DNA of 64,000 bases from Escherichia phage ECO340P2: the sequence record OP172792; one strand, written 5' to 3'. Of the stretch, positions 1 to 12,918 are shown in pieces. Numbering within the stretch: position 1 is the stretch's first letter; every line of letters begins with the position of its first letter. Both the position numbers and the translations under genes were made by a program. The notes under the pieces are model-generated. The model searched no databases, was not told the origin of the DNA, and saw only the letters and a program-made list of their open reading frames with translations.

Positions 1-1
1 A

Positions 2-547
2 GGTCGTTCAGCAGAACTGGATATTATTCATCGTAAAGTTAGCTATATCAACGATTATGGTTTCTTGGATAAAGCTAGTCGTAAGAAACTTATTGATGGG
101 GATACATTCTACTGCAACAAAGAATTCTGGGGTGATAAGAAGCTTGTGTTCATTGATGATGTAAATATCACTGGAACTCATGAAGACAAACTGATTGAGA
201 TCCTTGATGAAAATCAAGTTAAAAATGATGTTTACTTCTTGTATTTTGCAAAATATGAAGGTAATCAAGCAGATACCGAAGCTAAACTGAATTTTAACTA
301 TATTAATACACCAGAAGCATTTGTTAAAATGATTAATGAAGAACGTGATGCACAGTGTCTTGTTCGTCCTATTAAGTATCTTATGGGTCAAAATCACGAA
401 GACTTCAAAATCATTCTTAGCCAATTGCCACACTACTATGTAGAGCAGCTTTTCTTCGGATGTTTGGGAGAAGGTTACAACCGAATTGCAAAGTATGCTG
501 AAAACTTTGAGTTCTTGGATCGTTACACAAAACAACATATTCTGTGA
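2..547 (+). CDS. 5'-truncated ORF (continues upstream of window); phosphoribosyltransferase-like protein (tentative)
   Basis: Frame is open from window start; motif LVFIDDVNITGTHE resembles the PRPP-binding loop of type I PRTases (hydrophobic run, DD, then TG-T). Motif-level only. Confidence 0.35.
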   Translation, partial: GRSAELDIIHRKVSYINDYGFLDKASRKKLIDGDTFYCNKEFWGDKKLVFIDDVNITGTHEDKLIEILDENQVKNDVYFLYFAKYEGNQADTEAKLNFNYINTPEAFVKMINEERDAQCLVRPIKYLMGQNHEDFKIILSQLPHYYVEQLFFGCLGEGYNRIAKYAENFEFLDRYTKQHIL

Positions 548-560
548 TAAGGATCTAAAA

Positions 561-1046
561 ATGCTTAAAATGAAAACAGGTAATCTTATTGATGCCGCTA
601 AAGCAGGGGAAGTAACGGTTATTGCTCATTGTTGTAATTGTATGTGTAACATGGGGGCAGGTATTGCCCCACAAATAAAATATGCGTTTCCATATGCATA
701 CGAAGCAGATTTAGCTACAGGAGCAGGAAACCAGAAAAAGCTTGGTTCTTTTAGTTTAGGAGAACCAGAAGATTATCCTAATCCTATGGTATACAACCTT
801 TATGGACAATATCGTTATGGATATAATAGTAAAGGTCGTCAATTAGATTATGATGCACTGTATGATGCTCTTGCAGCTATGGCAATGGACTTACACAATT
901 ACGATAAAGGAGATCAACCAGCACATAAGATTGGTCTACCTATGATAGGTGCAGGTCATGCTGGAGGTAATTGGGCTATCATTGAAGTCATGATCAAAGA
1001 AACTTTAGTAAAAGCTGGTCACGATGTGACTATTTATAAACTTTAA
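561..1046 (+). CDS. Macro-domain protein, TARG1/OARD1/DarG-like (ADP-ribose removing)
   Basis: Motif VIAHCCNCMCNMGAGIA matches the TARG1-type macro signature (AHC..C.MGAGIA). Start moved to ATG 561 (AAGGA 7 nt upstream) instead of track start 486, which overlaps the previous gene. Confidence 0.6.
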   Translation: MLKMKTGNLIDAAKAGEVTVIAHCCNCMCNMGAGIAPQIKYAFPYAYEADLATGAGNQKKLGSFSLGEPEDYPNPMVYNLYGQYRYGYNSKGRQLDYDALYDALAAMAMDLHNYDKGDQPAHKIGLPMIGAGHAGGNWAIIEVMIKETLVKAGHDVTIYKL

Positions 1047-1058
1047 GAGGAGATTAGT

Positions 1059-1280
1059 ATGGGTGTTTTTGCAGGTATTGTTGCGGTGGTAGGGTTTTTT
1101 GTTATTGCTTTTATGCTTAGTTTGATCCCAGCTTGGTTACTGTTGCTGGCTTACAACTATGTTGCTGAAGTTATGGGTCATGCAGATATCACTGTTCCAG
1201 TAACCTTCTGGACCGTGGTTTGTGTTTCGTTTATTCTGGCTGTATTACGAGGAATCTTTTCCTCTAGTTCTTCTAAGTAA
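1059..1280 (+). CDS. Small hydrophobic membrane protein (2-3 predicted TM segments)
   Basis: ORF track; GAGG RBS upstream; sequence dominated by hydrophobic stretches (FFVIAFMLSLIPAWLLLLAY, WTVVCVSFILAVL). Confidence 0.5.
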   Translation: MGVFAGIVAVVGFFVIAFMLSLIPAWLLLLAYNYVAEVMGHADITVPVTFWTVVCVSFILAVLRGIFSSSSSK

Positions 1281-1300
1281 ATTTAAAACAGATGGAGGGC

Positions 1301-1525
1301 ATGATGAAAGTAGCTGTAGTAGAAACGGATACAGACTATCATGGAGCTTATGTTGACACCAAGATAATGGAATTCCCTTCTATGTTGGAGGCTGAAACCT
1401 GGTGTGATACAAGGTCTAGTAAAGGAAGTGCTTATTTTATCGACAAAAGCTTAACCAAAGCTTTGAACGAAGAGGAAAAGCCTAAGAAAGAGCCAGAAAA
1501 TAATATCAGCTTATCTTGGTATTAA
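1301..1525 (+). CDS. Hypothetical protein
   Basis: ORF track (1292..1525); GGAGGG RBS lies inside the 1292 start, so ATG 1301 is the likelier start. Confidence 0.45.
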   Translation: MMKVAVVETDTDYHGAYVDTKIMEFPSMLEAETWCDTRSSKGSAYFIDKSLTKALNEEEKPKKEPENNISLSWY

Positions 1526-1528
1526 CTG

Positions 1529-1557
1529 TTGACAAGCTTTTTAAAAAGAGTAAGATA
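1529..1557 (+). promoter_or_regulatory. Candidate sigma70-type promoter upstream of terC (weak -10)
   Basis: TTGACA at 1529-1534; best -10 is TAAGAT at 16-nt spacing. Confidence 0.3.
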
Positions 1558-1568
1558 TATCACATGAA

Positions 1569-1587
1569 GCGGGGAATAGTTCCCCGC
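1569..1587 (+). promoter_or_regulatory. GC-rich hairpin in the terC 5' leader
   Basis: GCGGGG-AATAGTT-CCCCGC, no U-tract, about 18 nt upstream of the terC start. Confidence 0.35.
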
Positions 1588-1604
1588 AAAGAGAGGAGAA
1601 AAGA

Positions 1605-2579
1605 ATGCAACTTGGTTTCCCAATTATTGATGTAGTTGTTTTAGTTGGTATTTTAGCATTGTCTATTGGTATCGATTTCTTTGGTCATAAAGAAAATAAA
1701 GAAATTGGAATCAAATCTGCTTTGCTTTGGTCTGTTTTTTGGATTGCTTTAGCTTTAGGGTATTACGCATTCATTTGGGTAGAACATGGTAAAGAATTTG
1801 CCGCGCTTTTCCTAAGTGGTTATGTGTTGGAAAAGAGTCTTTCTGTAGATAACCTAATGGTGTTCATGGCAATTTTTGCAAGCTTTGGAATTAAAAGCAC
1901 ACATCTCCAACATAAGATCTTACTTTGGGGGATTGCAGGAGCCATTGTCTTCCGAGGTATTTTTGTTGCAGCAGGCACCGCTTTGTTTAACCTTCATTGG
2001 TCGGTCCAAGTGTTGTTTGGTCTGATTGTAGCTTGGTCTGCCGTTGCTATTATCAAAGGGGGTGACGAAGAAGAGGATATTGATTACTCTAAACATTGGG
2101 CTGTTCGTTTAGTAGGTAAAGTTCTGCCTATGCACAATGCACTGGATGGTGAAAAGTTCATTACTATTAAGAATAGTATTAAATATGCAACCCCTGCTCT
2201 TCTTTGTGTGTTTGTTATTGAGCTTACAGATATTGTCTTCTCTTTTGATTCAGTTCCGGCTGTGATTGGTGTGACACAAGAACCTCTGCTAGTTTATTCT
2301 GCAATGCTGATGGCTGTTCTTGGCCTACGTGCACTTTTCTTTGTGTTAAGTGTAGCTGTGAAATATTTGGTTCACTTAGAGAAAGCTGTTGCTGTGGTTC
2401 TGGTGTTTGTTGGTGCTAAACTTATGTATCACCCGTTCGGTGAAACACTTCATGCCAAGTGGTCATTCCTCCCGCATGATATCTCTCCTAACGTAAGTTT
2501 AATGATTGTTCTAGGCACATTAGCTCTTGGTGTTATTGCAAGCTTTATCTTTCCTGAAAAAGAAGAAGCCACTGTTTAA
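1605..2579 (+). CDS. terC: TerC-family integral membrane protein
   Basis: Multi-pass hydrophobic protein carrying the TerC hallmark LEKSLSVDNLMVF; strong RBS GAGAGGAG upstream; followed by a terminator. Confidence 0.85.
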   Translation: MQLGFPIIDVVVLVGILALSIGIDFFGHKENKEIGIKSALLWSVFWIALALGYYAFIWVEHGKEFAALFLSGYVLEKSLSVDNLMVFMAIFASFGIKSTHLQHKILLWGIAGAIVFRGIFVAAGTALFNLHWSVQVLFGLIVAWSAVAIIKGGDEEEDIDYSKHWAVRLVGKVLPMHNALDGEKFITIKNSIKYATPALLCVFVIELTDIVFSFDSVPAVIGVTQEPLLVYSAMLMAVLGLRALFFVLSVAVKYLVHLEKAVAVVLVFVGAKLMYHPFGETLHAKWSFLPHDISPNVSLMIVLGTLALGVIASFIFPEKEEATV

Positions 2580-2585
2580 TAGATG

Positions 2586-2610
2586 AGCCTCCTTCGGGAG
2601 GCTATTTTAT
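2586..2610 (+). terminator. Rho-independent terminator after terC
   Basis: AGCCTCC-TTCG-GGAGGCT followed by ATTTTAT. Confidence 0.75.
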
Positions 2611-2621
2611 AGGAGAGACTT

Positions 2622-2972
2622 ATGAGTAATTTTGATGAAATTCAAGAACTTGTTTGGGATTTATGTGGTGATGTGGATTACGTTTCGGACTATCTTTCAA
2701 AAGTTTACCCTGGGGTAAGCGTTATGATTGTGACAAAAGATCCAATTAACTTACCTCCTAATGTGGTAGCTTGTTGTGGAAGTGGTTCAGGAGAAGTGGA
2801 GCCTGTATCTCGTTGGGAATTAACTAAAGCCGTTTCAAAACGAAACGGTGAAGTTTTGAATATTGATATCGAGCAAATATGGACTTCTCCAGCAGCCAAA
2901 TGGAATGATCCAAATGGTTGGGATTTGTTCTTTTGGGATAATGAAACTGATGATGAGGTATTTTTAAAATGA
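2622..2972 (+). CDS. Hypothetical protein
   Basis: ORF track; AGGAGAG RBS; no recognisable motif. Confidence 0.5.
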   Translation: MSNFDEIQELVWDLCGDVDYVSDYLSKVYPGVSVMIVTKDPINLPPNVVACCGSGSGEVEPVSRWELTKAVSKRNGEVLNIDIEQIWTSPAAKWNDPNGWDLFFWDNETDDEVFLK

Positions 2973-3214
2973 AATACTTGTTGGTTGTGTTTGAAAATAT
3001 TTGTTTTGCAATAGGTTTGTTTGTTGTAATTTTTGTATTGACAAGCGTAATCAACGGCAGTAAAGTGAGTTTATACCGAGATGGAGAGCAGCTTTATTGC
3101 TTCTCTGGAGATTTCAAACACAGATGTATTAATAGTCAAAACGAGGAAAGCAAATATGAAAAAACTAGCCCTGATTTTAATTGGTTGTATCTTTTTAACA
3201 GCTTGCGAGGATGA
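2969..3214 (+). CDS. Possible small single-TM protein (uncertain; overlaps next gene)
   Basis: ATGA start/stop overlap with preceding ORF; N-terminal hydrophobic helix LLVVFENICFAIGLFVVIFVL; overlaps the lipoprotein start by about 59 nt, so may be spurious. Confidence 0.25.
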   Translation: MKYLLVVFENICFAIGLFVVIFVLTSVINGSKVSLYRDGEQLYCFSGDFKHRCINSQNEESKYEKTSPDFNWLYLFNSLRG

Positions 3215-3593
3215 AACAAATCCTGCACAATACCAACAACCTCCTCAACAATACGCTCAACAAGGATCTGACGGAGATACAACTATTATCAACAATGGTG
3301 GCGGCTCTAGTAGTAGCGGTGTTGGGGAGTTTGCTACAGGTATGTTGTTAGGGCATATGATGAGCGGTGGTAGTAATCGTGGTGGCGGAGATTATAACGA
3401 TAACAGAACGATTATTAATAAACATTATAACACACCTAAACCAAAGACTAATTTTTATGGTAAACCTAAACAAGAGACAAAAACTTATGAAAAGCCGAGA
3501 CAAACTTTTAAAACAAATAGTAGCTATACAACTCGTAAATCTTACAGTAGCCCTTTAAGTAAAAAGAGTTCATCTCGTAGCAAGCGACGTTAA
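3156..3593 (+). CDS. Lipoprotein (signal peptide with lipobox LTAC), Q/G/S-rich, basic C-terminus
   Basis: MKKLALILIGCIFLTAC is a classic lipoprotein signal with lipobox Cys; GAGG RBS; start ATG 3156 preferred over track start 3081. Confidence 0.6.
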   Translation: MKKLALILIGCIFLTACEDETNPAQYQQPPQQYAQQGSDGDTTIINNGGGSSSSGVGEFATGMLLGHMMSGGSNRGGGDYNDNRTIINKHYNTPKPKTNFYGKPKQETKTYEKPRQTFKTNSSYTTRKSYSSPLSKKSSSRSKRR

Positions 3594-3607
3594 TAAGGAG
3601 AAAAACA

Positions 3608-4201
3608 ATGACAATTTCTATTCGTACTTCCATCGTAGGTGTTAAAAGGTTGCCTAATGCTTTGCAAATCACACGTGCTTTGAGGGATACGTTCTCTGCT
3701 GTGGATGAGCATAAAATGCTTGATAATCTCTCAAATTGGCCCTATTTTCATTATTTTAAAAATGAAGATGACGAGTTTATAGATGCTGTTTCTTATGGTT
3801 ATGATTTCGGTAAGGAGGTTTCTCCTGAAGAATTTGTAGCTACGGTATTCCCAAATGGTTTTCCTACTCGCAGCAAACGTAAAAAAGGACCAAAAAACAA
3901 GAAACGTGCTATTAATAAAGCTACCATTTTCTTTACTGATGGGACACAGTATACGATTAAAGATTTTGAAGAAGTATCTTATACAGCAGGTGGAAATCTT
4001 TCTTTCTACACCATCAAAAAACAAAACGCTACGTTCAGCCATGTTTCTAACATGATTGAAATGTTAGTAGAAGATATTGAAAGCGTGGCTGTGTTAGGTA
4101 TGCATAAAAGCTTTTTAATTACAAATATTTCAGATTTCAGTGCACGTTTATCTAGCCCTGATTTTGAAGCCACGACCACGCATTTCACTTTTAAGGTGTA
4201 A
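3608..4201 (+). CDS. Hypothetical protein
   Basis: ORF track; AAGGAG RBS; no recognisable motif. Confidence 0.5.
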   Translation: MTISIRTSIVGVKRLPNALQITRALRDTFSAVDEHKMLDNLSNWPYFHYFKNEDDEFIDAVSYGYDFGKEVSPEEFVATVFPNGFPTRSKRKKGPKNKKRAINKATIFFTDGTQYTIKDFEEVSYTAGGNLSFYTIKKQNATFSHVSNMIEMLVEDIESVAVLGMHKSFLITNISDFSARLSSPDFEATTTHFTFKV

Positions 4202-4204
4202 GTT

Positions 4205-4795
4205 ATGTATACCGAGAGAGACTTGCAACTCTTGTGGTGGGAAGTGATGCAGGAAATAAAAGAAGATTTTCCTGTTTACTACAACATGTTACGTGAAGCA
4301 GGATATAAAGCTTGCGTTAGAAACAAAGTGAATAACTCTTTTGGTTGGTGCAACTACCGAGATAAAATTGTTGTTGTAAATTGGCACTTGCATAAGAACT
4401 CTACAAGAGATATGATCGTGGATACAATGAAGCATGAAATTGCTCATGCTATTGATGGTTGTATGGGTAAGTTTAGTAGGCACGGTGCTCATTGGCAAAA
4501 ACTGGCAGCAGAATTAGGGGCTAATCCTAAAGCCACTTCCAAAGAGCCGTTGAACCACGAATATAAATATGTTCTTGTTCTGGTAGATAGGTTTGCGACA
4601 AGGTGTGTTAGAGGTTATAATCGTAAACCTAATCGCATGTACCCAGGTAAGCAACCTAATATGTGGTTGAAATCAGATAAAGAAGGGACCGAAGGAAAAT
4701 TATGGTTGTATAAATGGGACGATTGGGTTAAAGTAGCTAAAGAGTACGGTGTTTCACCATATATAAGAGATGCAGAAGAGGAGAATGAAGAATGA
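4205..4795 (+). CDS. HExxH zinc-metallopeptidase-like protein (SprT/Wss1-like)
   Basis: Motif MKHEIAHAIDGCMGKFSRHGAHW gives HExxH plus a downstream His; family assignment tentative. Confidence 0.5.
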   Translation: MYTERDLQLLWWEVMQEIKEDFPVYYNMLREAGYKACVRNKVNNSFGWCNYRDKIVVVNWHLHKNSTRDMIVDTMKHEIAHAIDGCMGKFSRHGAHWQKLAAELGANPKATSKEPLNHEYKYVLVLVDRFATRCVRGYNRKPNRMYPGKQPNMWLKSDKEGTEGKLWLYKWDDWVKVAKEYGVSPYIRDAEEENEE

Positions 4796-5904
4796 CAAGT
4801 CCATTTTTAAAAGCAGCTACTGGTGGTCAGAAGAAGTCTGAAATGAGTGTATTCGCTGCAACAACAGATGCAAGTAAATCTGTATTCGCGCCAAGCGTGT
4901 TAGATGCCAGTCCTGTTTATGCACCAGCCGCACCGCAAGAAGTCCCAGTTTTGCCTTCTATGACCCGACAAGAGATCGAAGAGATTGGGGCAGAGGCAGG
5001 AACAACCTTGCGTTCCTTGAATGCCGAGGTATTAAAACATCAACGTAGTAATCAAGGCGATCAGATGAGTGAACGACTCACAGCTTTGATTAAACAGGCA
5101 AAACAACTTGATCCAAACTCTATTAAACAAAGCAAGGGTATTACTAAACTCATTAAAAAGGTCATGGGTATGAAAGAAGACCTGTTCGGGGAGTTTGATA
5201 ATGTTAATAACCGTATTGAAGAGTTAGTAAAGAACCTTCAAATGGATATTCGCAAAGAAGAAGATTCCTTAGTATATCTTGAAAAACTACATCAAGCTAT
5301 TGGACAATATGCTGCAAGTTTGAACCGAGATATGCAGCTTCTAACAGCAACCTATGAAAAAGAAGAGCAAGCTTTGGCTGCTCTTCCAGAAGATGCAGTA
5401 GAACAGCGACAAGTGATCCGAGATACTTTGGATCTTCTGGAGATTCGTATTGCGGATTTAAAAGCATTGCGCCTACTGTGTGTCCAAATGGGACCACGTG
5501 TACAAGGTATGCAAAAAGTTTCTGCAAGCTTAATGCGATCTGCGCGTAACATAGTAAATAATGTTATCCCTGCTTACTCTGCTAACTTCTCAATGTATAT
5601 TGAGAGCTTACGTCAAATGAAAGCCGCAGAAACACAGAATAACGTTCTTGATGAATTTAACCTGGCAATTAAATTAGGTAGTGATTTGGCTACACAAAAT
5701 CAGATTGAAGCCGCAGCATTGGCTAACCGTCAAGTGTTAGATATTGATACTCTGCGACACGATCAGGAAAACTTAGTTAAAATGCTGGAAGAAACAAATC
5801 GCATCAATACAGAAGCCCGTGCTGCTCGTGTTGATTATATTAATGAAGTTCAATCTCTGGAAGACGGGATGGTAGCTGCTGTAAAACGAGGACTTGGTAA
5901 ATGA
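4792..5904 (+). CDS. TelA-like (toxic anion resistance family) coiled-coil protein, tentative
   Basis: About 370 aa, disordered N-terminus then long coiled-coil-prone helices; size, composition and position between terC and terD fit TelA/KlaA. No diagnostic motif verified. Confidence 0.4.
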   Translation: MTSPFLKAATGGQKKSEMSVFAATTDASKSVFAPSVLDASPVYAPAAPQEVPVLPSMTRQEIEEIGAEAGTTLRSLNAEVLKHQRSNQGDQMSERLTALIKQAKQLDPNSIKQSKGITKLIKKVMGMKEDLFGEFDNVNNRIEELVKNLQMDIRKEEDSLVYLEKLHQAIGQYAASLNRDMQLLTATYEKEEQALAALPEDAVEQRQVIRDTLDLLEIRIADLKALRLLCVQMGPRVQGMQKVSASLMRSARNIVNNVIPAYSANFSMYIESLRQMKAAETQNNVLDEFNLAIKLGSDLATQNQIEAAALANRQVLDIDTLRHDQENLVKMLEETNRINTEARAARVDYINEVQSLEDGMVAAVKRGLGK

Positions 5905-6095
5905 GAATCCGTGTTTATATGATTGATGATAGCTTTGGTGTCCGTTATGATGACGAAAAACGATTCGCGCCGATTAGCGGCATACATCCCCTAAGTGTTT
6001 TGGCAGCTTGTCGTGATAAATATCTCTATGAAGCTTGTAATCATTTTGGTTTTGAGCTTCTTTCAGATGTAGAGTTTAATGAGGAGGAAGGATGA
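5901..6095 (+). CDS. Small acidic hypothetical protein
   Basis: ORF track; ATGA overlap with upstream gene; acidic C-terminus. Confidence 0.4.
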   Translation: MRIRVYMIDDSFGVRYDDEKRFAPISGIHPLSVLAACRDKYLYEACNHFGFELLSDVEFNEEEG

Positions 6096-6265
6096 AAATA
6101 TTACGCGTGAATATTGAAACCGCTTGGTGCGGATGTAATGAGGTTGTGGATATTGAAATTGAAGATGATATGTCTAAAGAGGATATAGAAGATCTTGCAC
6201 ACGAAACCTTTCAGGACTATTGTAGCTATGGGTTCCATATTTTAGAGGAGGAAGAAGATGTATAA
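6092..6265 (+). CDS. Small acidic hypothetical protein (57 aa, not in ORF track)
   Basis: ATG 6092 preceded by GAGGAGGAAGG; read by hand to stop at 6263-6265; very acidic. Confidence 0.3.
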   Translation: MKILRVNIETAWCGCNEVVDIEIEDDMSKEDIEDLAHETFQDYCSYGFHILEEEEDV

Positions 6266-6656
6266 TCCAACAGGTATTCTTTTAAAACTCACAGTAACAG
6301 ATCCTACTCTTTTCACCAAGTTAGTCAGTGGTGAAGTCTATGAAGTAATGAAAGATGACGACGGTTGGTGTTATCTTTGTGGCTACTACCTCTGTGATGC
6401 AGAAGAGTTAGAATCCATTACAACTAAAGGTTTTTATGAAGAACCAGGCTTCCGTGTGGAAACTACACAGAAACCTGATACCATTACGTTGACTCGACAG
6501 GAACTGATCACAATCATTGAAGATGCTTTTATTGATGGTTGGAATACACAAGATAATGATTGGGGTGGACCTGAAGCTTTTCTAGAACATCATAAAGCTT
6601 ACGGAGAATTTTGTGAAACCACTGTAGCTCTTGATAATCTGAAGGAGGGTTTGTAA
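6258..6656 (+). CDS. Acidic hypothetical protein
   Basis: ORF track; GAGGAGGAAGAAG RBS; strongly D/E-rich. Confidence 0.5.
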   Translation: MYNPTGILLKLTVTDPTLFTKLVSGEVYEVMKDDDGWCYLCGYYLCDAEELESITTKGFYEEPGFRVETTQKPDTITLTRQELITIIEDAFIDGWNTQDNDWGGPEAFLEHHKAYGEFCETTVALDNLKEGL

Positions 6657-7219
6657 TGGGTTGTTTTAGCTTTTTGTGTAAGGAATCGGGCAAAGCTGCC
6701 CTTTCTACTTCTTTCGACGGATCGCCTTGCTATCTCTTTCTTTTGAAAGATGGTGTTGTTATTGAAGAGATGTATGGCAACTACGATAGTTATGGTTGTG
6801 TTTTCTCTGGAAAGGAGGACGAAAATGGCGTTCGTGAACGGTTTGATTGGGTTATGGATTGGAGTAAGGTTTGTGATTTGATGCATTCCTCAAATCCAAG
6901 GGACGGTATCGCTATGGTGCTGGAAGAGTACTTTACAGGTGAAATCCCTACAGAACAATCTGACAGAGATCCTAACCAAGGTTGGGGTGATGGTGAAGAA
7001 GATCCAGATTGTTTTTTCAGCACAGAAAAGAATAAGTTTAAACGTGTTGACAACCCTTATCACAAAGTGCATAATACTCTCATTGAAACAGAAGATGACA
7101 AGATGGAAATTGAAGAAGATGATCCTCTTGTAACACTTCCTATAAGCGAGTTACAAAAGATTACTAAAGAAGCTTACGATTTGGGCTTCAAAATTGGTAG
7201 AGGAGGTATGCGTGTTTAG
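6656..7219 (+). CDS. Hypothetical protein with acidic C-terminal half
   Basis: ORF track; GGAGGG RBS; several Cys pairs; no recognisable family. Confidence 0.5.
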   Translation: MGCFSFLCKESGKAALSTSFDGSPCYLFLLKDGVVIEEMYGNYDSYGCVFSGKEDENGVRERFDWVMDWSKVCDLMHSSNPRDGIAMVLEEYFTGEIPTEQSDRDPNQGWGDGEEDPDCFFSTEKNKFKRVDNPYHKVHNTLIETEDDKMEIEEDDPLVTLPISELQKITKEAYDLGFKIGRGGMRV

Positions 7220-7484
7220 ATTCAATATTCAAGAAGAAAAGTATAAGGATTTACCTGTTCCTTTCGAAGATCTTGACGTAGGGGATACATTCATGTATTA
7301 TGCTGCCTATGAAGATGCAGGGTTGGATACTTACATTAATTTGGTGTTCATTAAAAGTTCTCCAAACAGCGCAATCTGCATCAGTGGATCGCAACGAGGT
7401 TATACACATTGTATCCCGCCAGATACAAATATGGTGGAAGTAGATTTAGAAGTTACCAATATCACACTTAAGAAGGAGAAATAA
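7212..7484 (+). CDS. Small protein, paralog A of a duplicated pair (partner of the TerD-headed vWA gene)
   Basis: GTG 7212 preceded by GGAGG; motifs DLDVGDTFMYYAAYEDAGLD and EVDLEVTNITLKK are shared with ORF 8506..8775. Confidence 0.5.
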   Translation: MFRFNIQEEKYKDLPVPFEDLDVGDTFMYYAAYEDAGLDTYINLVFIKSSPNSAICISGSQRGYTHCIPPDTNMVEVDLEVTNITLKKEK

Positions 7485-7485
7485 T

Positions 7486-8280
7486 ATGTCCGAGAAAATC
7501 AGCCTGAAAAAACGTCAAGAAAACCTTGCTTTCTCTCTGAAAAAGAATAAGAACCTGAATGAAGGTAAGATTGTTCTTCGTGTAGCATGTGCTCTAGATA
7601 TTTCTGGTAGTATGCATGGTCTATATGCTCGTGGAGTAGTGAGTGATTTTGTAGGTAAACTGCTCCCTTTTGGTATGCTGTTCGACGATAATGAACAAAT
7701 TGATATGTGGGCCTTCAATACAAGTTCTCAAGAGCTTACTCCAGCAACAGCAGACGTTTACGATGATTATGTTGGTAAATGTATGCGTAATGTTCGTATC
7801 GGAGGTGGAACAAATTACGCCCCTGTAATGGCAGATATCTACGATGAGTATTTTGGCACTGTTACCAAATATATTACCACTAAACAAGTGGTACAAGAGG
7901 AGGCTCCAAAGAAAGGCTTCTTTAATCGTCTGCTTGGTAAAACTGAAACAGTATCTGTAGAGCGTGAAAAGGTTGTAGCTGTATCTGAACCAGGTGCTGA
8001 CGTTACCCCTGGTGTTGTATTCTTCCAGACGGATGGTGAGAATGGTGATCCTAGTGCTGTTCGTCGTCTTATTGAAGAGAATAAGAATAAACCTATTTAT
8101 TGGTTCATGGTTGGCGTCGGTAATGAGAAGTTTGGCTTCCTGAAAGAACTGGCAAATGCTTATGATAATGTTGGTTTTATTGGCATTAAAGATTTAGACT
8201 TGACAGATTCAGAGCTTTATGACAAACTCTTATCTGAAGAGTTCGGAGAGTGGGTTGTTAAAGTAGGTGCTAAAAAATGA
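7486..8280 (+). CDS. vWA (MIDAS) protein with TerD-like N-terminal head; TerF/TerY-like
   Basis: N-terminus MSEKISLKK...FSLKK mimics the TerD start; LRVACALDISGSM is a vWA MIDAS DxSxS motif. Confidence 0.65.
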   Translation: MSEKISLKKRQENLAFSLKKNKNLNEGKIVLRVACALDISGSMHGLYARGVVSDFVGKLLPFGMLFDDNEQIDMWAFNTSSQELTPATADVYDDYVGKCMRNVRIGGGTNYAPVMADIYDEYFGTVTKYITTKQVVQEEAPKKGFFNRLLGKTETVSVEREKVVAVSEPGADVTPGVVFFQTDGENGDPSAVRRLIEENKNKPIYWFMVGVGNEKFGFLKELANAYDNVGFIGIKDLDLTDSELYDKLLSEEFGEWVVKVGAKK

Positions 8281-8525
8281 TCGACGAGCTTGCCTCTCAA
8301 GTCGTAGAAAATTATTGGCGCGAGAGAGAAGCTTTCATTATGCGCAGTCTCAAAGAATATTTCATTGGGACTGTGCGGATGGAAGATATTGTAAGTAGAG
8401 TAGAGATTCATGTATGGCCTGATTATGAAGAATGGGTTGACAAAGAAAATGAAAATGCTATAATTCTTCGTATATACAAACCGGAGATAACATTAGGAGG
8501 AAGAAGTGTTAAACTTCGAAATTGA
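8277..8525 (+). CDS. Hypothetical protein
   Basis: ORF track; ATGA overlap with upstream gene. Confidence 0.4.
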   Translation: MIDELASQVVENYWREREAFIMRSLKEYFIGTVRMEDIVSRVEIHVWPDYEEWVDKENENAIILRIYKPEITLGGRSVKLRN

Positions 8526-8775
8526 TGAGCAAAAAATAAATAAACGATGCCTTACCATTAAAGATTTGGATGTAGGAGATACTTTCGTCTATGAAAATGC
8601 ATTTGACGAAAATGGTTTAGACCTTAGTGAAGTCATTGTTTATTTAAAAGTAGATGATGGGGAAAATGATTATTCTGCTGTAGAATTAAACCATCATGCA
8701 CAATTAGTAGCAATCCAAAACACATCTAAGCTTTTGGAAGTAGAATTGACTGTAACTGGTATTACACTTAAATAA
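8506..8775 (+). CDS. Small protein, paralog B of the duplicated pair (partner of terD)
   Basis: GTG 8506 preceded by AGGAGG; shares DLDVGDTF..Y and L.VELTVTGITLK motifs with ORF 7212..7484. Confidence 0.5.
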   Translation: MLNFEIDEQKINKRCLTIKDLDVGDTFVYENAFDENGLDLSEVIVYLKVDDGENDYSAVELNHHAQLVAIQNTSKLLEVELTVTGITLK

Positions 8776-8790
8776 TAGAGGAGACAAAAG

Positions 8791-9393
8791 ATGACTGATA
8801 AAATTTCCCTGAAAAAAGGCTCTAGCGAAAAAATTTCCCTGAAGAAAGTTGCTCCGGCTCTGAAAGAACTGCGCCTGGAATTCTCTTGGAAATCTGATTC
8901 TAAACTGGATCTGGATGTAAGTGCACTGGTTTGTCGTCATAATGCCGCTGGCAATCCTGAAATGCTGTCTGCACGTCATCTGGTTTGCTATGCTAACAAG
9001 TTTGATCCTGAACGTTCTACCTTTGCTGGTGACGATGTTCGTGATGGGACTGGCAGCATGGAGCAGATTGATATTACTCTGGCTAAAATCTCTCCCGATG
9101 CACAAGAGATTGCCTTTGTTCTGACCATTGATGATGATACAGGTCTGAAACGTTTTGGTCATGCTTCTGAAGGTATGCTTAAAATCTTCGACTCCGAGTG
9201 TAATGTGGAAATTCTGGATTTTGACTTCCTGGCTCCTGAAGTAGCTGGCAACACAATCTGCCACGTGGCTTCCTTGGTTCGTGAAGATGGTGAATGGAAG
9301 CTGAAAGCATATGGTGTAGGTAAAGCTGGTCTGGATATTTGTGATGTGGTGATGGCCTTCGGTGGTAAAAAAGAATGGTATGAATGTCCATAA
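8791..9393 (+). CDS. terD: TerD-family protein
   Basis: Collinear with remembered enterobacterial TerD: ISLKKGSSEKISLKK, LDLDVSALVC, GDDVRDGTGS..IDITL, FVLTIDD and GEWKLKAYGVGKAG all match. Confidence 0.9.
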   Translation: MTDKISLKKGSSEKISLKKVAPALKELRLEFSWKSDSKLDLDVSALVCRHNAAGNPEMLSARHLVCYANKFDPERSTFAGDDVRDGTGSMEQIDITLAKISPDAQEIAFVLTIDDDTGLKRFGHASEGMLKIFDSECNVEILDFDFLAPEVAGNTICHVASLVREDGEWKLKAYGVGKAGLDICDVVMAFGGKKEWYECP

Positions 9394-9412
9394 TAATTAA
9401 CAAATGATTTTG

Positions 9413-9434
9413 AGGGGGGAGAAATCCCCCTCTT
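9413..9434 (+). terminator. GC-rich hairpin after terD (possible terminator, short U-tract)
   Basis: GAGGGGG-AGAAAT-CCCCCTC followed by TT only. Confidence 0.4.
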
Positions 9435-9461
9435 GCAATAAAGCCTCTATCGTGTTATACT
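9433..9461 (+). promoter_or_regulatory. Sigma70-type promoter (TTGCAA-N17-TATACT) upstream of the cell-wall hydrolase gene
   Basis: -35 TTGCAA 9433-9438, 17-nt spacer, -10 TATACT 9456-9461. Confidence 0.55.
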
Positions 9462-9493
9462 AGAAGTTCGTTAACTTAAAAAGGAGGCAAAAT

Positions 9494-10015
9494 TTGCTGA
9501 TAAAAAACTTTGTAACAGTTGCGTTACTATCCTTAACTGCTTTTACATTTACACCTGTTGTGGCGAAAGCCGAAGCTGCAAACGTAAAAACCGCTAAAGT
9601 AGTTCACAAATGTACAAAGCAATATAATGATAAAATTCTATTAGCTTGTGCAATTTACGCAGAAGGTCGCGGTCTGGGTAAAAAAGGAATGAATGCCGTT
9701 GGGAATGTGGTAATCAATAGAAGAAATGATGCCTACTTTCCTAACACAGTCAGAGGAGTCTTGTTCCAGAAAGGACAATTTTCATATGCGAAAACTTTTA
9801 ACGTAACAGAGAAAGATAAGTGGCAGGAAGCAAAAGCAATAGCGGAGCGTTTACTTTATTTAGAGAAACATTTTCCTGAATTGCGATCTGTTTTAGATGT
9901 TACTAAAGGTGCTCTATACTTCAAGAAACGGAATATAAGGACACACTGGGAACGCGATATGCGTCTTGTTTATCGAGATAAAGTGCATGGTTTCTATCTA
10001 CCAAAGGAGAGTTAA
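9494..10015 (+). CDS. Secreted cell-wall hydrolase (SleB/CwlJ-type) with N-terminal signal peptide
   Basis: TTG start after AAAGGAGG; signal-like N-terminus; core CAIYAEGRGLGKKGMNAVGNVVINRRNDAYFPNTVRGVLFQKGQFS matches the SleB-type fold; own promoter upstream. Confidence 0.75.
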   Translation: MLIKNFVTVALLSLTAFTFTPVVAKAEAANVKTAKVVHKCTKQYNDKILLACAIYAEGRGLGKKGMNAVGNVVINRRNDAYFPNTVRGVLFQKGQFSYAKTFNVTEKDKWQEAKAIAERLLYLEKHFPELRSVLDVTKGALYFKKRNIRTHWERDMRLVYRDKVHGFYLPKES

Positions 10016-10016
10016 A

Positions 10017-10301
10017 ATGCAAGAAGATAATACTGTTGTTGTAGCAAGTTACCTGGTTGTCGGTCTTACCGAAGAGGATGTATACTACACCCGTAAACAT
10101 TTGGAAGCATACGCTACTTTGTTTATGGAAGATGAAAAGGATGTAGATAAATATAGCATTGATATGATCAACGACAGTATTTATCCTTGTATGGTTCTTA
10201 AAGTAGATGCTGTGTTGTGGGAGCGTTTTGCAAGGACTCATGATGCTGTAGAATGCTCCGCAGTAATGTCTCAAAACAACATTTTAGGGGAGATTCACTG
10301 A
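10017..10301 (+). CDS. Hypothetical protein
   Basis: ATG 10017 after AAGGAGAG; in frame with track ORF 9966..10301. Confidence 0.45.
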   Translation: MQEDNTVVVASYLVVGLTEEDVYYTRKHLEAYATLFMEDEKDVDKYSIDMINDSIYPCMVLKVDAVLWERFARTHDAVECSAVMSQNNILGEIH

Positions 10302-10531
10302 TGGGAGAAGTCATTGAAGTCAATTTTCGCACTAAACAAAAAGTGCAAAAGTATGTCGTTATTAAAAACATTTGCGTTGTCTGCTTCAATACAGTAATAT
10401 ACGACTCACGACGCGGAGAAAACGAAAATGAACCTTACATTGAAATTTCTAAGAACAAAGGTCAATGTATTTGTAAGAACTGTGCAGTAGCTATTAAGGA
10501 GGTTGTAAATGAAAACGCTTGGGACCAATGA
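10301..10531 (+). CDS. Small zinc-ribbon-like protein
   Basis: TGATG overlap; two CxxC pairs (CVVC, CKNC). Confidence 0.45.
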   Translation: MGEVIEVNFRTKQKVQKYVVIKNICVVCFNTVIYDSRRGENENEPYIEISKNKGQCICKNCAVAIKEVVNENAWDQ

Positions 10532-10718: not shown

Positions 10719-11282
10719 ATGATTTATTATATTACTCCCTATCTGACAGGAAATATCGGCAAGGCTATTAATGAAGCCATTGCCGTTCTTCCAGATGATA
10801 GTTGGGTGTGTTTAAGAGATACTGATACAATGTTCCTTCTGCCTGATCAACCATCTATGTTGGAAGATCTTGTTATGTCAAACCCACCTTTTGATGTAAT
10901 AGGTGCAACTTGTAATAGACTAGGTAGTGGTTATCAGCTTTTCTCTAACCAAATTAATGATGACCCAGACATTCTAAACCATATAGAATATGCTAAAATT
11001 GCACGGGAATATCATAAAACAAACGTTGAAGAAGTTCCTTTTGGAACACCTTTAGCTGGTTTCTTTTTGCTTTTTAGAAAATCATTGTGGAATGAGATTC
11101 CTTTCGAAGAAAAATCTATCCAATTTGACTTAATTTTCTCTCGCACTTTACATGAAAAAGGAAAGAGGTTAGGATTGATGCGGGGAATGTATCTGTTCCA
11201 CATTTATAGGTTAGGTCAAACAAATCCTCAACGGTCTATAAACCATTTATTACACTGTCACGATCACAGTAAAACTATTTAG
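10719..11282 (+). CDS. Possible GT-A-type glycosyltransferase (tentative)
   Basis: GGAGGGGGGAG RBS; CLRDTDTMFL resembles a DxD-type nucleotide-sugar site; weak. Confidence 0.35.
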   Translation: MIYYITPYLTGNIGKAINEAIAVLPDDSWVCLRDTDTMFLLPDQPSMLEDLVMSNPPFDVIGATCNRLGSGYQLFSNQINDDPDILNHIEYAKIAREYHKTNVEEVPFGTPLAGFFLLFRKSLWNEIPFEEKSIQFDLIFSRTLHEKGKRLGLMRGMYLFHIYRLGQTNPQRSINHLLHCHDHSKTI

Positions 11283-11290
11283 GAGAGAAA

Positions 11291-11974
11291 ATGGAAAATA
11301 TTAAAATCGGAGTAGGTGTTATCACTGTAGGTGTCCGTCCACTTAAAGATTACCTTGTAACAGATCCACGTGCAGATTTTCGAGTATTCAACGATCCAGA
11401 TCGTAAAGGTGTAGCTTATGCCAGGAATGAACTTATGCACCAGTTCTATGAAGAAGGTTATGATTATTGGTTTATTTTTGACGATGATTGTTACCCAGTT
11501 ATGGAGGGATGGGAAACATATTTTGTAGACCAAGCTATTTCTGGAAGATGGGATTTCTTTGGTATGCCGGAGTATTTCAAAGATAAAGTTGTCGGAAGCA
11601 AAGGAGAAGTTATTCTCTGGGAACTTGCAATGTGTCAATTTGCAATGTATTCTCGTGCCGTTGTTGAGAAGATGGGTTATTTCCGCCCTTACACTCACGG
11701 TTATGGTTTTGAAGATGCCGAATGGGGACACCGTTTGAAAGCTGCTGGTTTGAATCATGGTATTCAGGCAACACCTTGTCCACTTCGCATTATGGCTTAT
11801 ATTCACCCAGACGATGTTTTTGGAAACAATCCTATGCCTTTTGCTAATCTGACTAAAGAAGAGAAAGAAGCCGCTATTGGGATTAACTGGGAAGAATATA
11901 AAGCGTCTTTAGAGGATATTAAAAATGGGAAAATCCGACTTTCCTATGAGGAGGCAATGGCACATGTCAAATAA
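11291..11974 (+). CDS. Glycosyltransferase, GT-A fold (DxD motif)
   Basis: Motif YWFIFDDDCYP in a GT2-like context; followed by two GT-B paralogs. Confidence 0.5.
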   Translation: MENIKIGVGVITVGVRPLKDYLVTDPRADFRVFNDPDRKGVAYARNELMHQFYEEGYDYWFIFDDDCYPVMEGWETYFVDQAISGRWDFFGMPEYFKDKVVGSKGEVILWELAMCQFAMYSRAVVEKMGYFRPYTHGYGFEDAEWGHRLKAAGLNHGIQATPCPLRIMAYIHPDDVFGNNPMPFANLTKEEKEAAIGINWEEYKASLEDIKNGKIRLSYEEAMAHVK

Positions 11975-12911
11975 AAAATGGTCTAAACTAAAAATTGATG
12001 CAAAACCTCACAGCGGTTGTGATTATCATCGTATTGTTATGCCATTTGACAACAATAATTTTCAACCTAAAAAAGATATTGTTGTGTTTAACCGTATTCA
12101 CTCTAAAGGAGCAGAATACGTTCTGTCTTTGAAACGTCAAGGTGTTAAGATTGTTGTAGATTTAGATGATTTCTACCAACTTAATCCAGAACACTATTTA
12201 GCAAGTTTATATGAGTCAAACACCCATGCTATTGTAGCTATGGTTAAGCTTGCAGATGTGGTTATTGTGACTACGGAATACTTGGCATATAAAATCCGAC
12301 ATTTAAATAGAAATGTTGTTGTGATCCGAAATGCACTTCCTTTTGATAGTGGACAGTTCACTTTGTCAAATGATCGTTCGTCCGGTACCCCTGTTGTATG
12401 GGCTGGCGGCGCTAGTCATGAACCTGATTTACGACTGGTTTCTAATACTTTTGATGATGAACTTCTTACTATTGCAGGATATGAAGCTTCACAGAGCATC
12501 ACAGGGCAAGAATGGATTAAGATCCGTAGAAATTTACCAAATGCTAAATATAAAGCTGCCGTAAAAGATTTAGATAATTACATGAGTGTTTATGAGAGTC
12601 ATGCTATTGCTATAGCTCCTTTGGTAGATAATGATTTTAATAATTGTAAAAGTAATCTCAAAATCCTGGAAGCTGGAGCAAAAGGTATTCCGATTGTTTG
12701 TTCTAAGGTGTTACCTTATTTTAACCCTGTAGATGCTCGCGCTGTTGCTTATGCAGAGAATAAAGCAGAGTGGCATTACGAAATTGTTAAGCTTCTTCGC
12801 AATCCAAACTATCGGGAAGATCGTGGTTTGTTCTTGGCGGAACATGTTCGAACACATTATAATCTGGCAGATGCAAACGAGTTGCGACGCCAGGTTATTG
12901 AAAGTTTGTAG
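11964..12911 (+). CDS. Glycosyltransferase, GT-B fold (GT1/GT4-like), paralog 1
   Basis: C-terminal NCKSNLKILEAGAKGIPIV resembles the GT4 EAxxxGxP sugar-donor motif; start ATG 11964 after GAGGAGG (track start 11925 lacks RBS). Confidence 0.5.
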   Translation: MSNKKWSKLKIDAKPHSGCDYHRIVMPFDNNNFQPKKDIVVFNRIHSKGAEYVLSLKRQGVKIVVDLDDFYQLNPEHYLASLYESNTHAIVAMVKLADVVIVTTEYLAYKIRHLNRNVVVIRNALPFDSGQFTLSNDRSSGTPVVWAGGASHEPDLRLVSNTFDDELLTIAGYEASQSITGQEWIKIRRNLPNAKYKAAVKDLDNYMSVYESHAIAIAPLVDNDFNNCKSNLKILEAGAKGIPIVCSKVLPYFNPVDARAVAYAENKAEWHYEIVKLLRNPNYREDRGLFLAEHVRTHYNLADANELRRQVIESL

Positions 12912-12918
12912 GTGAAGT

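Follow-up and report, generated by a model that had tools for sequence, protein, structure and literature searches.

The terZABCDEF operon, found on IncHI2 plasmids (R478) and in enterobacterial islands, has phenotypes that include phage inhibition and colicin resistance (PMC8386662, PMC9796965, PMC8115787). Plasmid TelA belongs to a separate system, telAB/klaABC (PMC8386662). In Bacillus, TerD, TerC (MeeF) and TelA (YceH) are combined in yceCDEFGH-type envelope-stress loci; the B. altitudinis example comprises three TerD proteins, TerC, PRTase, HAD, YceG and YceH/TelA (PMC11994780). A two-gene PRTase and HAD module linked to Ter genes was described by Anantharaman, Iyer and Aravind (2012), as summarised in PMC11994780, and TerB is said to accompany nearly every Ter cluster that has such a biosynthetic module (PMC11994780). 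Among phages, the families TerC, TerD, TerF-type vWA and TelA occur together in Klebsiella phage ZCKP1, phiPsa374 (Otagovirus), phiKp34, Caulobacter jumbo phages and Acinetobacter ME3, with PRTase and HAD enzymes also reported for ME3 (PMC7824862). Four tellurite-resistance genes were reported in ZCKP1 and superinfection exclusion was proposed (PMC6141743); the same was put forward for phage Ter systems generally (PMC7824862), and published models give the Ter components their roles and propose such exclusion by phages (PMC7824862, PMC6141743, PMC8386662). Phage Ter clusters, their link to PRTase and HAD, and the superinfection-exclusion idea are in print in Iyer 2021. No experiments on any phage Ter gene were found in the literature searched.

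The window (the whole 64-kb stretch of DNA that was analysed) comes from a Phapecoctavirus (phAPEC8-like), a virulent myovirus of the Stephanstirmvirinae with 95-96% identity to dozens of sequenced phages. The Ter block at its left end is kept in 61 phage genomes at a coverage of at least 80%, and its TelA is 99.7% identical to that of ZCKP1. The Ter genes have already been annotated and discussed in near-identical phages, and the finding is thus a known one. In phAPEC8 the block adjoins ribonucleotide reductase genes, and an AbiEi-like gene is located just upstream of it.

The first-pass annotation had named five ORFs as PRTase-like, TerC, TelA, vWA and TerD, and all five were present where it had placed them, on the + strand. 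In profile searches each exceeded the curated Pfam cut-off of its expected family by a wide margin. TerC (1605-2579, Pfam TerC E 3.4e-40) is an integral membrane protein in whose translation both repeat motifs, SLSVDN and FSFDSVPA, can be read; it scored 317 bits against the TerC/Alx family model TIGR03718 (cut-off 246), the family to which E. coli Alx and B. subtilis MeeF and MeeY, sharing the two motifs, also belong. It shares 47.5% identity, across the entire protein, with IncHI2-type plasmid terC (tblastn vs plasmids) and 33% with E. coli Alx (BLASTP). On these identities the phage protein is nearer to the TerC of ter operons than to Alx, the Mn2+ exporter of the host. TelA (4792-5904, E 7.2e-33) is predicted to begin with approximately 55 disordered residues followed by a long all-helical bundle. 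The vWA protein (7486-8280, PF10138 E 1.3e-37) carries a complete MIDAS (DISGS...GGGT...TDGEN), the residues of which were kept in six aligned phage homologues. The vWA/MIDAS assignment stood, while the TerD-like N-terminus claimed for this protein was reduced to a stretch of about 20-50 residues with a short TerD-like strand motif (MSEKISLKK..SLKK vs MTDKISLKK..ISLKK; BLAST E 1e-3 to 1e-5) and no TerD domain. The sole TerD copy (8791-9393, Pfam TerD E 9.2e-28) aligned with PDB entries 2kxt (3e-15) and 3ibz (3e-14). Its DLD motif is retained, but the canonical Ca2+ loop GDNRTGEGDGDDE is degenerate (GDDVRDGTGSM--E in the alignment), whereas other phage TerDs retain the loop. Four Ter-family matches with E values of 1e-27 or less within 9.4 kb are far beyond chance.

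TerB was not detected in any ORF by profile searches, and TerZ, TerA and TerE were absent in the same searches. In comparison with terZABCDEF, the phage thus shares TerC, the TerD fold and the C-terminal vWA domain of TerF, but has one TerD paralogue, a vWA protein without a full TerD domain, and TelA in addition. Compared with the Bacillus yceCDEFGH locus it holds a single TerD, lacks a recognisable YceG and gains a TerF-type vWA. The departures from classic ter operons are the missing TerB, the single TerD, in which most of the acidic motif of the Ca2+ loop is lost, and a HAD protein without the usual second Asp.

TerC, TelA, vWA and TerD recur jointly in at least four phage lineages and constitute a real core. 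The whole block is not one module: the genes do all run in the same direction, as had been noted, but the proposal of a single Ter neighbourhood found no support, as it was put, in comparative genomics, where only these four travel together. Here they lie between the upstream HAD-PRTase_3 pair and an endolysin gene, spread over 7.8 kb with 13 unrelated ORFs between them, whereas in Otagovirus phiPsa267 and Bertelyvirus CcrSC the same four genes are compact, contiguous or nearly so. The order TerC...TelA...vWA...TerD-endolysin is also found in the relatives L018 and L019, with a TelA identity of only 47-48%.

The PRTase-like gene encodes a PRTase_3 (ComF-like) phosphoribosyltransferase (2-547, PF15610 E 4.7e-28), of which the window edge leaves the C-terminal 181 aa; the full-length homologue, phAPEC8 gp049, has 275 aa (PRTase_3 E 1.3e-41). 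The PRPP loop VFIDDVNITGTHE is intact and was conserved in all six aligned phage PRTase_3 homologues, including phAPEC8 gp049 and that of phi92. In relatives a HAD hydrolase gene overlaps the PRTase start, at a position just left of the window. HAD motif I reads D-V-W-N-T rather than DxDxT; the Asp+2 general acid/base is missing from seven of seven phage homologues, and a simple phosphatase step can therefore not be taken for granted. The pair shares PRTase_3 and an overlapping HAD with the described Ter-linked biosynthetic module, but has no detectable TerB beside it. It directly adjoins TerC, TerD and vWA genes, in a different gene order, in two independent metagenomic phage-like contigs. 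Rhizobium phages, Xanthomonas XaC1 and a 198-kb contig carry the pair with no Ter genes close by, and whole-genome searches gave no TelA match in those Rhizobium phages or in XaC1. In L019 the pair is absent from the roughly 6 kb that precede terC. HAD-PRTase_3 is therefore a separable cassette, joined to Ter genes in some genomes and found without them in others.

Most of the small ORFs are independent neighbours outside the Ter system, and so are the genes for the macro domain, the SprT-like peptidase and the 187-aa protein. The first-pass assignments of the macro domain, the HExxH peptidase, the lipoprotein and the small membrane proteins held up. The macro ORF (561-1046, +, phrog_335) belongs to the SCO6735/BT1257/DarG/TARG1 clade according to phmmer matches to PDB (SCO6735 3e-12, BT1257 4e-8, DarG macrodomain 4e-5, TARG1 2e-3) and alignments. 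Its Pfam match was weak (E 3e-4) and its NCBIfam DarG match (E 1e-8) also fell below the cut-off; the PADLOC DarG model matched over positions 1-144 of 329 (E 1e-9). The fold and the GxGxAGG loop are shared with SCO6735/BT1257, but the DarT-binding C-terminal domain of DarG is missing, and the catalytic lysine (TARG1 K84, DarG K80) aligns to Q/Y. Macro homologues are very common in phages irrespective of Ter genes (2,297 phage records vs 220 for TelA), and this one probably acts on its own in ADP-ribose processing or counter-defence. The small membrane proteins are a 73-aa hydrophobic protein with about two TM segments (1059-1280, +, phrog_16065; 61% identity to phi92 gp184) and an 81-aa protein that has a single TM segment at its N-terminus (2969-3214, +; 49% identity to phi92 gp181). 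The latter ORF overlaps the start of the gene for a predicted lipoprotein (3156-3593, +), which has the lipobox LTAC (MKKLALILIGCIFLTAC), a Gly/Ser-rich middle and a basic tail, and is 36% identical to phi92 gp180, itself carrying a sig_peptide annotation. The 197-aa protein that follows (3608-4201, +, phrog_27550) had no Pfam match; its C-terminal ~110 aa are kept in phi92 gp179 (BLASTP). The HExxH peptidase is a SprT-like zinc metallopeptidase (4205-4795, +, HEIAH, PF10263 E 4.2e-9, 36.7 bits vs cut-off 25.6) with no match in phi92 and a counterpart in one deeper relative, L019. The N-terminal ~138 aa of the 187-aa protein (6656-7219, +) represent a highly conserved, unannotated phage family with C3, C8, GNYDSYG, DPNQGWG and H136 invariant, found elsewhere in replication modules without Ter genes. 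A ~90-aa protein (7194-7484, +; 62% identity to phi92 gp174) has a paralogue at 8506-8775 (36% identity to phi92 gp174).

A sigma-70-like promoter (TTGACA-16-TAAGAT, 1529-1556, +, 10/12 match in the promoter scan) precedes terC and coincides with a 'host dependent promoter' annotated in phAPEC8. Further along the leader, inspection of the sequence shows a GC-rich hairpin of 8 bp (1569-1587, +). No Rfam family, including yybP-ykoY, was found in this leader. Immediately 3' of terC the terminator scan identified an intrinsic-terminator-like hairpin (2586-2603, +; AGCCTCC-TTCG-GGAGGCT then ATTTTAT). The sole 12/12 sigma-70 match in the window, TTGACA-16-TATAAT with an upstream TG (8437-8464, +), is located within a small ORF and precedes both the 8506-8775 ORF and terD. 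The block end is marked by a 7-bp GC-rich hairpin without a T-run (9412-9432, +) after terD, followed by a promoter-like site (9433-9461, promoter scan) and the SleB-type endolysin gene (9494-10015, Hydrolase_2 E 1.8e-17).

With a probability of roughly one half, the block carries a cut-down phage-borne Ter system that acts as superinfection exclusion, with HAD-PRTase_3 as a linked module. This reading is supported by the family membership of the four core proteins and PRTase, the intact MIDAS and conserved PRPP loop, the compact four-gene clusters and kept gene order in distant relatives, the closeness of TerC to ter-operon TerC rather than Alx, the HAD-PRTase_3 pairs adjoining Ter genes in two contigs, the presence of the block in 61 genomes, and the host-type promoter and own terminator of terC. 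Counting against it are the lack of TerB, the degenerate TerD Ca2+ loop, the HAD without Asp+2, the occurrence of HAD-PRTase_3 without Ter genes, and the 13 ORFs between core genes.

Possible, though somewhat unlikely, is a role in metal homeostasis, with TerC as an exporter of divalent cations such as Mn2+ or a metal chaperone, in the manner of Alx, MeeF and MeeY. The phage would then tune cytoplasmic Mn2+/Ca2+ or metalate exported proteins during infection, and TerD, vWA and TelA would bind metals and regulate the TerC transporter, not form an exclusion device. The TIGR03718 score ('TerC/Alx family metal homeostasis membrane protein') is consistent with this, as are the metal-binding nature of TerD and the vWA MIDAS site and the ribonucleotide reductase genes beside the block in phAPEC8. 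However, the phage TerC resembles that of ter operons more than it does Alx, terC is not preceded by a Mn2+ riboswitch, the TerD Ca2+ loop is degenerate, and the strict co-occurrence of TelA is left unexplained. To our knowledge Alx and MeeF/MeeY have no need for TerD, TelA or vWA partners. Experiments showing Mn2+ export by Alx and metalation of exoenzymes by TerC proteins (PMC10197570, PMC10550928) and the contribution of Klebsiella terC to zinc resistance (PMC12054061) favour the metal role, which overlaps the exclusion reading and does not exclude it.

A mosaic with no common function is distinctly unlikely. In it, accessory and counter-defence genes unrelated to one another would share a direction over 9.4 kb, with HAD-PRTase_3 serving nucleotide metabolism beside the reductase genes, the macro domain reversing ADP-ribosylation and the Ter genes being separate or relics. 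The macro domain, the 187-aa family, SprT and HAD-PRTase_3 all occur without Ter genes, the interrupting ORFs, several candidate internal promoters and the terminator split the block, and the AbiEi-like gene in phAPEC8 would fit a counter-defence island. Against this, all lineages examined carry the four Ter genes together, with their order kept across deep divergence, HAD-PRTase_3 directly adjoins Ter genes in two other lineages, and the intact MIDAS, both TerC repeats and the PRPP loop point to purifying selection, not decay. Very improbable is a function in lysis or envelope timing, in which the Ter proteins and the TM-protein/lipoprotein pair (2969-3593) would act with the SleB-type endolysin on envelope failure. 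The endolysin gene directly follows terD in the window, phi92, L018 and L019, a Band_7 scaffold gene lies within the L018 block, and the small TM ORF overlapping the lipoprotein gene has what we take to be a likeness to an i-spanin/o-spanin arrangement. The adjacency to terD may nevertheless be inherited synteny; the terC promoter is of an early type, the compact Otagovirus and Bertelyvirus clusters are not annotated beside lysis genes, and PHROGs gave no spanin or holin annotation for the pair and the Ter ORFs. Tellurite resistance proper, conferred on the host, is suggested by family names and database annotations ('tellurite resistance') only and is effectively refuted, since cells infected by this virulent phage die, the phage has no TerB, TerA, TerZ or TerE while terBCDE is stated to be needed for resistance (PMC8115787), and the phiPsa374 Ter genes were likewise judged not to confer it (PMC9796965).

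The reading of phage Ter genes as a membrane-stress or superinfection-exclusion system is plausible, and is not new. Under this cut-down Ter system, host RNA polymerase would transcribe terC early in infection, starting at the gene's own promoter, and TerC would insert into the inner membrane. TerD, the TelA helical bundle and the vWA protein with its metal-dependent adhesion site may then assemble on the cytoplasmic face of TerC. HAD-PRTase_3 would be a two-enzyme version of the Ter-linked biosynthetic module, its product probably a ribonucleotide- or ribonucleoside-like small molecule feeding or signalling to the Ter complex. The complex would alter divalent-cation flux and the envelope state of the infected cell. 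The phage would then gain what plasmid ter operons have long been known for, the inhibition of other phages and of pore-forming colicins, and this would amount to superinfection exclusion that shields the infected cell until lysis.

All four core Ter families were found to be co-encoded on the plus strand within 1605-9393, and every ORF named in the first-pass annotation, which had described a Ter-like neighbourhood in bases 1-9393, was recovered on that strand. Profile-HMM searches with the five proteins proposed to be PRTase, TerC, TelA, vWA-TerF-like and TerD matched the predicted Pfam families, with E values from 9.2e-28 (TerD) to 3.4e-40 (TerC). The best-supported reading, to which a probability of roughly 0.5 is given, is a TerC-centred membrane complex that would exclude competitors, with optional input from a HAD-PRTase_3 enzyme pair.

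TerC (1605-2579, +) was matched full-length by Pfam PF03741 (E 3.4e-40; 138 bits against a cut-off of 27.8) and the NCBIfam TerC/Alx model TIGR03718 (317 bits against 246). Both internal repeat motifs, the SLSVDN already noted and FSFDSVPA, were read in the translation. The protein was assigned on sequence to the ter-operon type, and not to host alx acquired by capture, because its full-length identity to terC of IncHI2-type plasmids is 47.5%, against only 33% identity to Alx of E. coli K-12. The gene has its own candidate sigma-70-like promoter, in the same place as the 'host dependent promoter' annotated in the Phapecoctavirus relative phAPEC8, a leader of only ~50 nt with a simple hairpin, and a clean intrinsic terminator at its end. 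Whereas TerC proteins of the Alx/YkoY type are riboswitch-controlled, the phage terC leader lacks yybP-ykoY; neither this Mn2+ riboswitch nor any other Rfam family was matched in bases 1-10500 at E<=1. A metal-homeostasis role, for which experimental work on Alx and MeeF/MeeY speaks (PMC10197570, PMC10550928), is possible, if doubtful.

In the vWA-TerF-like protein (7486-8280, +; PF10138, E 1.3e-37) the MIDAS is complete (DISGS, GGGT, TDGEN) and is kept across six phage homologues. The vWA/MIDAS half of its earlier description therefore stands, while the TerD-like N-terminus is reduced to a stretch of ~20-50 residues, to which the similarity with TerD is limited. An 11/12 sigma-70-like site was seen upstream of this gene at 7047-7075. 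The TelA match (4792-5904, +; PF05816, E 7.2e-33) spans profile positions 13-327 of 332, and the structure prediction proposed for this candidate bore out the call, the AF2 model being all-helical with a disordered N-terminus. No solved homologue of TelA was found by sequence, and fold comparison returned generic helical-bundle matches only.

TerD (8791-9393, +; PF02342, E 9.2e-28) aligned over its whole length (residues 5-183) with the solved Klebsiella and Streptomyces TerDs (2kxt, E 3e-15; 3ibz, E 3e-14), in agreement with the first-pass call. The canonical acidic Ca2+-binding loop of TerD proteins is GDN(R/L)TG(E/A)GDGDDE. The putative loop of the window protein reads GDDVRDGTGSM--E, with the first GD and last E kept and the DGDD acidic run lost. 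The GDGDDE portion has become GTGSM-E both here and in the Justusliebigvirus phi92, and the canonical loop is retained in TerDs of four other phage lineages. The sole perfect sigma-70 consensus of the 64-kb window (TTGACA-16-TATAAT with an upstream TG; 8437-8464, +), a candidate promoter, is embedded in a small ORF and shortly precedes the 8506-8775 ORF and terD. The small ORFs at 7194-7484 and 8506-8775 (both +) are paralogous and share DLDVGDTF. The copy at 7194-7484 immediately precedes the vWA gene, the other is found upstream of terD, and phi92 holds a single copy (gp174).

The ORFs of the window were set against those of phi92, the Otagovirus phiPsa267, the Bertelyvirus CcrSC, Xanthomonas phage XaC1, a Rhizobium phage, an Asteriusvirus and a number of metagenomic contigs. 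TelA, vWA, TerC and TerD co-occur in phi92, Otagovirus, Bertelyvirus and two divergent relatives (L018 and L019), and form compact four-gene clusters in phiPsa267 and CcrSC. Two metagenomic phage-like contigs (L009 and L010) carry TerC, TerD and vWA with an unassigned coiled-coil-like ORF. The order TerC...TelA...vWA...TerD-endolysin is retained in relatives with no more than 47-48% TelA identity; in L018 a Band_7 (SPFH/stomatin-type) membrane scaffold gene was observed between terC and telA (4332-5213). The core four of the window are not adjacent: 13 other ORFs stand between them, as do candidate internal promoters and the terminator that follows terC. That the block is a mosaic of functionally unrelated genes was judged distinctly unlikely. 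The proposal of a single Ter neighbourhood holds for the four core genes, which recur together, and is not supported for the macro domain, SprT-like and 187-aa genes, which are neighbours of the Ter system and not components of it.

Phapecoctavirus and phi92 also share a small HTH protein, the HAD, the PRTase, the macro domain, two small membrane proteins, the lipoprotein, part of a 197-aa ORF, the 187-aa ORF and one of ~90 aa. Conservation between the two genera does not extend to the SprT-like peptidase or to six small ORFs. The lipoprotein and small membrane proteins had been anticipated, and a lipobox (LTAC) and hydrophobic stretches are visible in the translations. At 2969-3593 (+) a small single-TM gene overlaps the start of the lipoprotein gene, a layout conserved in phi92 (gp181/gp180). 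This pair resembles an overlapped i-spanin/o-spanin pair, and the centre of the lipoprotein is glycine-rich; PHROGs gave no lysis annotation for either gene.

The macro domain ORF (561-1046, +) fell below the Pfam threshold and was recognized through solved macrodomains (SCO6735, 3e-12; BT1257, 4e-8; DarG, 4e-5; TARG1, 2e-3). DarG antitoxin macrodomain models matched it as well, DarG being its best defence-model match. In HMMER alignments the TKK of DarG and TARG1 stands opposite GQY in the phage protein and, likewise, GQH in SCO6735. The catalytic lysine (K84 of TARG1, K80 of DarG) is not present in the phage protein, which groups with SCO6735 and BT1257; the description of a TARG1-like macro domain holds for the macro fold of that clade. 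An anti-DarT role, raised by the DarG matches, was downgraded because the lysine is not conserved. Macro homologues occur in 2,297 phage records, and in some Vibrio phages one lies beside a ribose-phosphate pyrophosphokinase gene, a neighbour that hints at an ADP-ribose/NAD-related role.

The predicted HExxH peptidase proved to be SprT-like (4205-4795, +; PF10263, E 4.2e-9, 36.7 bits against a cut-off of 25.6), with HEIAH in the translation. The 187-aa ORF (6656-7219, +) belongs to a strongly conserved family of 313 homologues with no Pfam domain and with invariant Cys, GNYDSYG, DPNQGWG and His; in Ter-free contigs it adjoins genes for DnaB, a DNA polymerase or a methylase. The AF2 model of the ORF product, although confident (pLDDT 88), gave no fold match, and the protein may adopt a novel fold that bears a conserved Cys/His site.

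The PRTase_3 gene (PF15610; 2-547, +) is cut by the window edge, leaving the C-terminal 181 aa inside (E 4.7e-28); the complete phAPEC8 protein (gp049, 275 aa) matched at E 1.3e-41. Its PRPP loop (VFIDDVNITGTHE) is intact and conserved among the aligned phage homologues. The HAD gene (phAPEC8 gp048), located outside the window, overlaps the PRTase start and showed weak HAD matches (Pfam, E 4e-4; TIGR02252, E 2e-8; PDB 2om6, E 8e-5). Such an overlapping upstream HAD partner always accompanies the PRTase, the pair being conserved in seven phage lineages. In all seven HAD homologues motif I is D-V-W-N-T (D-F-W-N/Q-T in two) and not DxDxT: the nucleophile Asp is retained, and the Asp+2 of ordinary HAD phosphatases has become Trp.

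The pair is linked to Ter genes in the window lineage, phi92, L009 and L010, and directly adjoins TerC/TerD/vWA in the last two, which are independent contigs with different gene order. This adjacency supports a link already published, two accounts (PMC7824862; PMC11994780, summarising Anantharaman et al. 2012) associating Ter systems with a two-enzyme PRTase+HAD module. The pair is unlinked or Ter-free in Rhizobium phages, XaC1, a 198-kb contig (L011) and Papperlapapp, and is missing upstream of terC in the deeper relative L019. PRTase homologues were found in 156 phage records and TelA homologues in 220, far fewer than the 2,297 with a macro homologue. In XaC1-like jumbo phages the pair is followed not by Ter genes but by a ~530-aa DUF2828/DUF7788 protein (L011, 10967-12562; L005, 9941-11527), a neighbour which suggests that the cassette can team with a different partner.

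Bases 1-9400 were matched by 99 phage records, a single match spanning at least 80% of the stretch in 61 of them, with 94-96% identity to the Escherichia phages WPEC6, anhysbys, phAPEC8 and relatives (Phapecoctavirus, Stephanstirmvirinae). Among near-identical Phapecoctavirus or Justusliebigvirus genomes, several bear the name 'Campylobacter phage' (B15, C3) or 'Acinetobacter phage' (ABPW7) in the database, and for phages of the E. coli type such host labels look doubtful. In phAPEC8 the block is preceded by anaerobic ribonucleotide reductase genes and followed by endolysin, four glycosyltransferases, primase/helicase, Dam and DNA polymerase I, and then by structural genes on the opposite strand; this arm of the virulent myovirus genome serves replication and nucleotide metabolism. 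A lysis-timing role, to which the conserved adjacency to endolysin would point, is very improbable. In the window, four consecutive glycosyltransferase-like genes (10719-13863, +), so annotated in phAPEC8, follow the endolysin, the last two (11925-12911 and 12919-13863) looking paralogous, and five tRNA genes (Met, Ile, Pro, Gln, Gly; 63107-63673, -) are clustered at the far end.

Immediately before the HAD-PRTase pair, at a point ~1.5 kb to the left of where the window begins, phAPEC8 encodes gp047 (L001 7464-8069; 201 aa), residues 29-200 of which match PADLOC AbiEi antitoxin models at E 5e-13. No Pfam or NCBIfam match and no counterpart in phi92 were found for gp047, which may be a phage antitoxin mimic directed against AbiE. 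Among the PADLOC defence models none matched the Ter proteins, the macro domain (DarG) and gp047 (AbiEi) giving the only matches.

Neither the ORFs of 1-9393 nor the phAPEC8 genes upstream gave a Pfam match to TerB at E<=0.1-1. At permissive Pfam thresholds TerA, TerZ and TerE were absent from every ORF searched and no further TerD paralogue was detected among the unassigned ORFs, leaving a single TerD-domain ORF. The TerD neighbour in phi92 (gp171), considered as a second TerD, did not align with TerD. The terZABCDEF tellurite operon, in contrast, has TerB and multiple TerD paralogues (TerZ, TerA, TerD, TerE, TerF). Literal tellurite resistance was rejected. Many matching records already label the genes TerC, TelA or 'tellurite resistance'.

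The description of phage ZCKP1, which shares 99.7% TelA identity with the window, lists four tellurite-resistance genes and proposes that they act in superinfection exclusion (PMC6141743). Iyer, Anantharaman and Aravind (2021) likewise proposed exclusion for phage Ter systems, some with PRTase and HAD enzymes (PMC7824862), and other examples are phiKp34 (PMC8386662) and phiPsa374 (PMC9796965). Neither the neighbourhood nor the exclusion hypothesis is new; the present comparison adds the separation of core from bystanders and three points on which the lineage departs from the textbook system, in that TerB is missing, the TerD loop is degenerate and the HAD is atypical. In the literature searched, no experiment on a phage Ter gene came up, nor any assay of tellurite, phage-inhibition or colicin phenotypes for a phage-encoded set.

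The exclusion complex favoured here follows the model already published for Ter systems, phage ones included (PMC7824862, PMC8386662, PMC6141743). Beyond what was shown, namely family membership, intact motifs, four-gene co-occurrence and the promoter/terminator layout, we infer that TerC would stand at the centre of a membrane complex whose cytoplasmic side would carry TerD, TelA and the MIDAS protein. Expressed early, the complex would change both ion flux and the state of the envelope; competing phages and colicins would thereby be kept out, and the infected cell would live on until lysis; the HAD-PRTase_3 product would be an optional small-molecule input. A bolder version, tentative and on balance unlikely, is a naturally minimised Ter system that lacks TerB and has one TerD, its metal loop rewired, and a HAD without the usual general acid, in which a nucleoside-like signal from the pair would gate a TerC-TelA-vWA-TerD complex blocking the DNA of superinfecting phages, or colicins.

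Ter operons, common in pathogens, have been linked with resistance to phages, colicins and stress. The stripped-down set of a virulent E. coli phage is small and amenable to genetics, comprising four core genes and an optional two-enzyme cassette. The comparative results narrow the deletion targets, since the macro domain, SprT-like and 187-aa genes are bystanders, and mechanistic models must fit the lack of TerB, the degenerate TerD Ca2+ loop and the atypical HAD. If the minimised-system reading is true, the 40-year-old question of Ter function would gain its first tractable model in phAPEC8/phi92-type phages growing on E. coli K-12.
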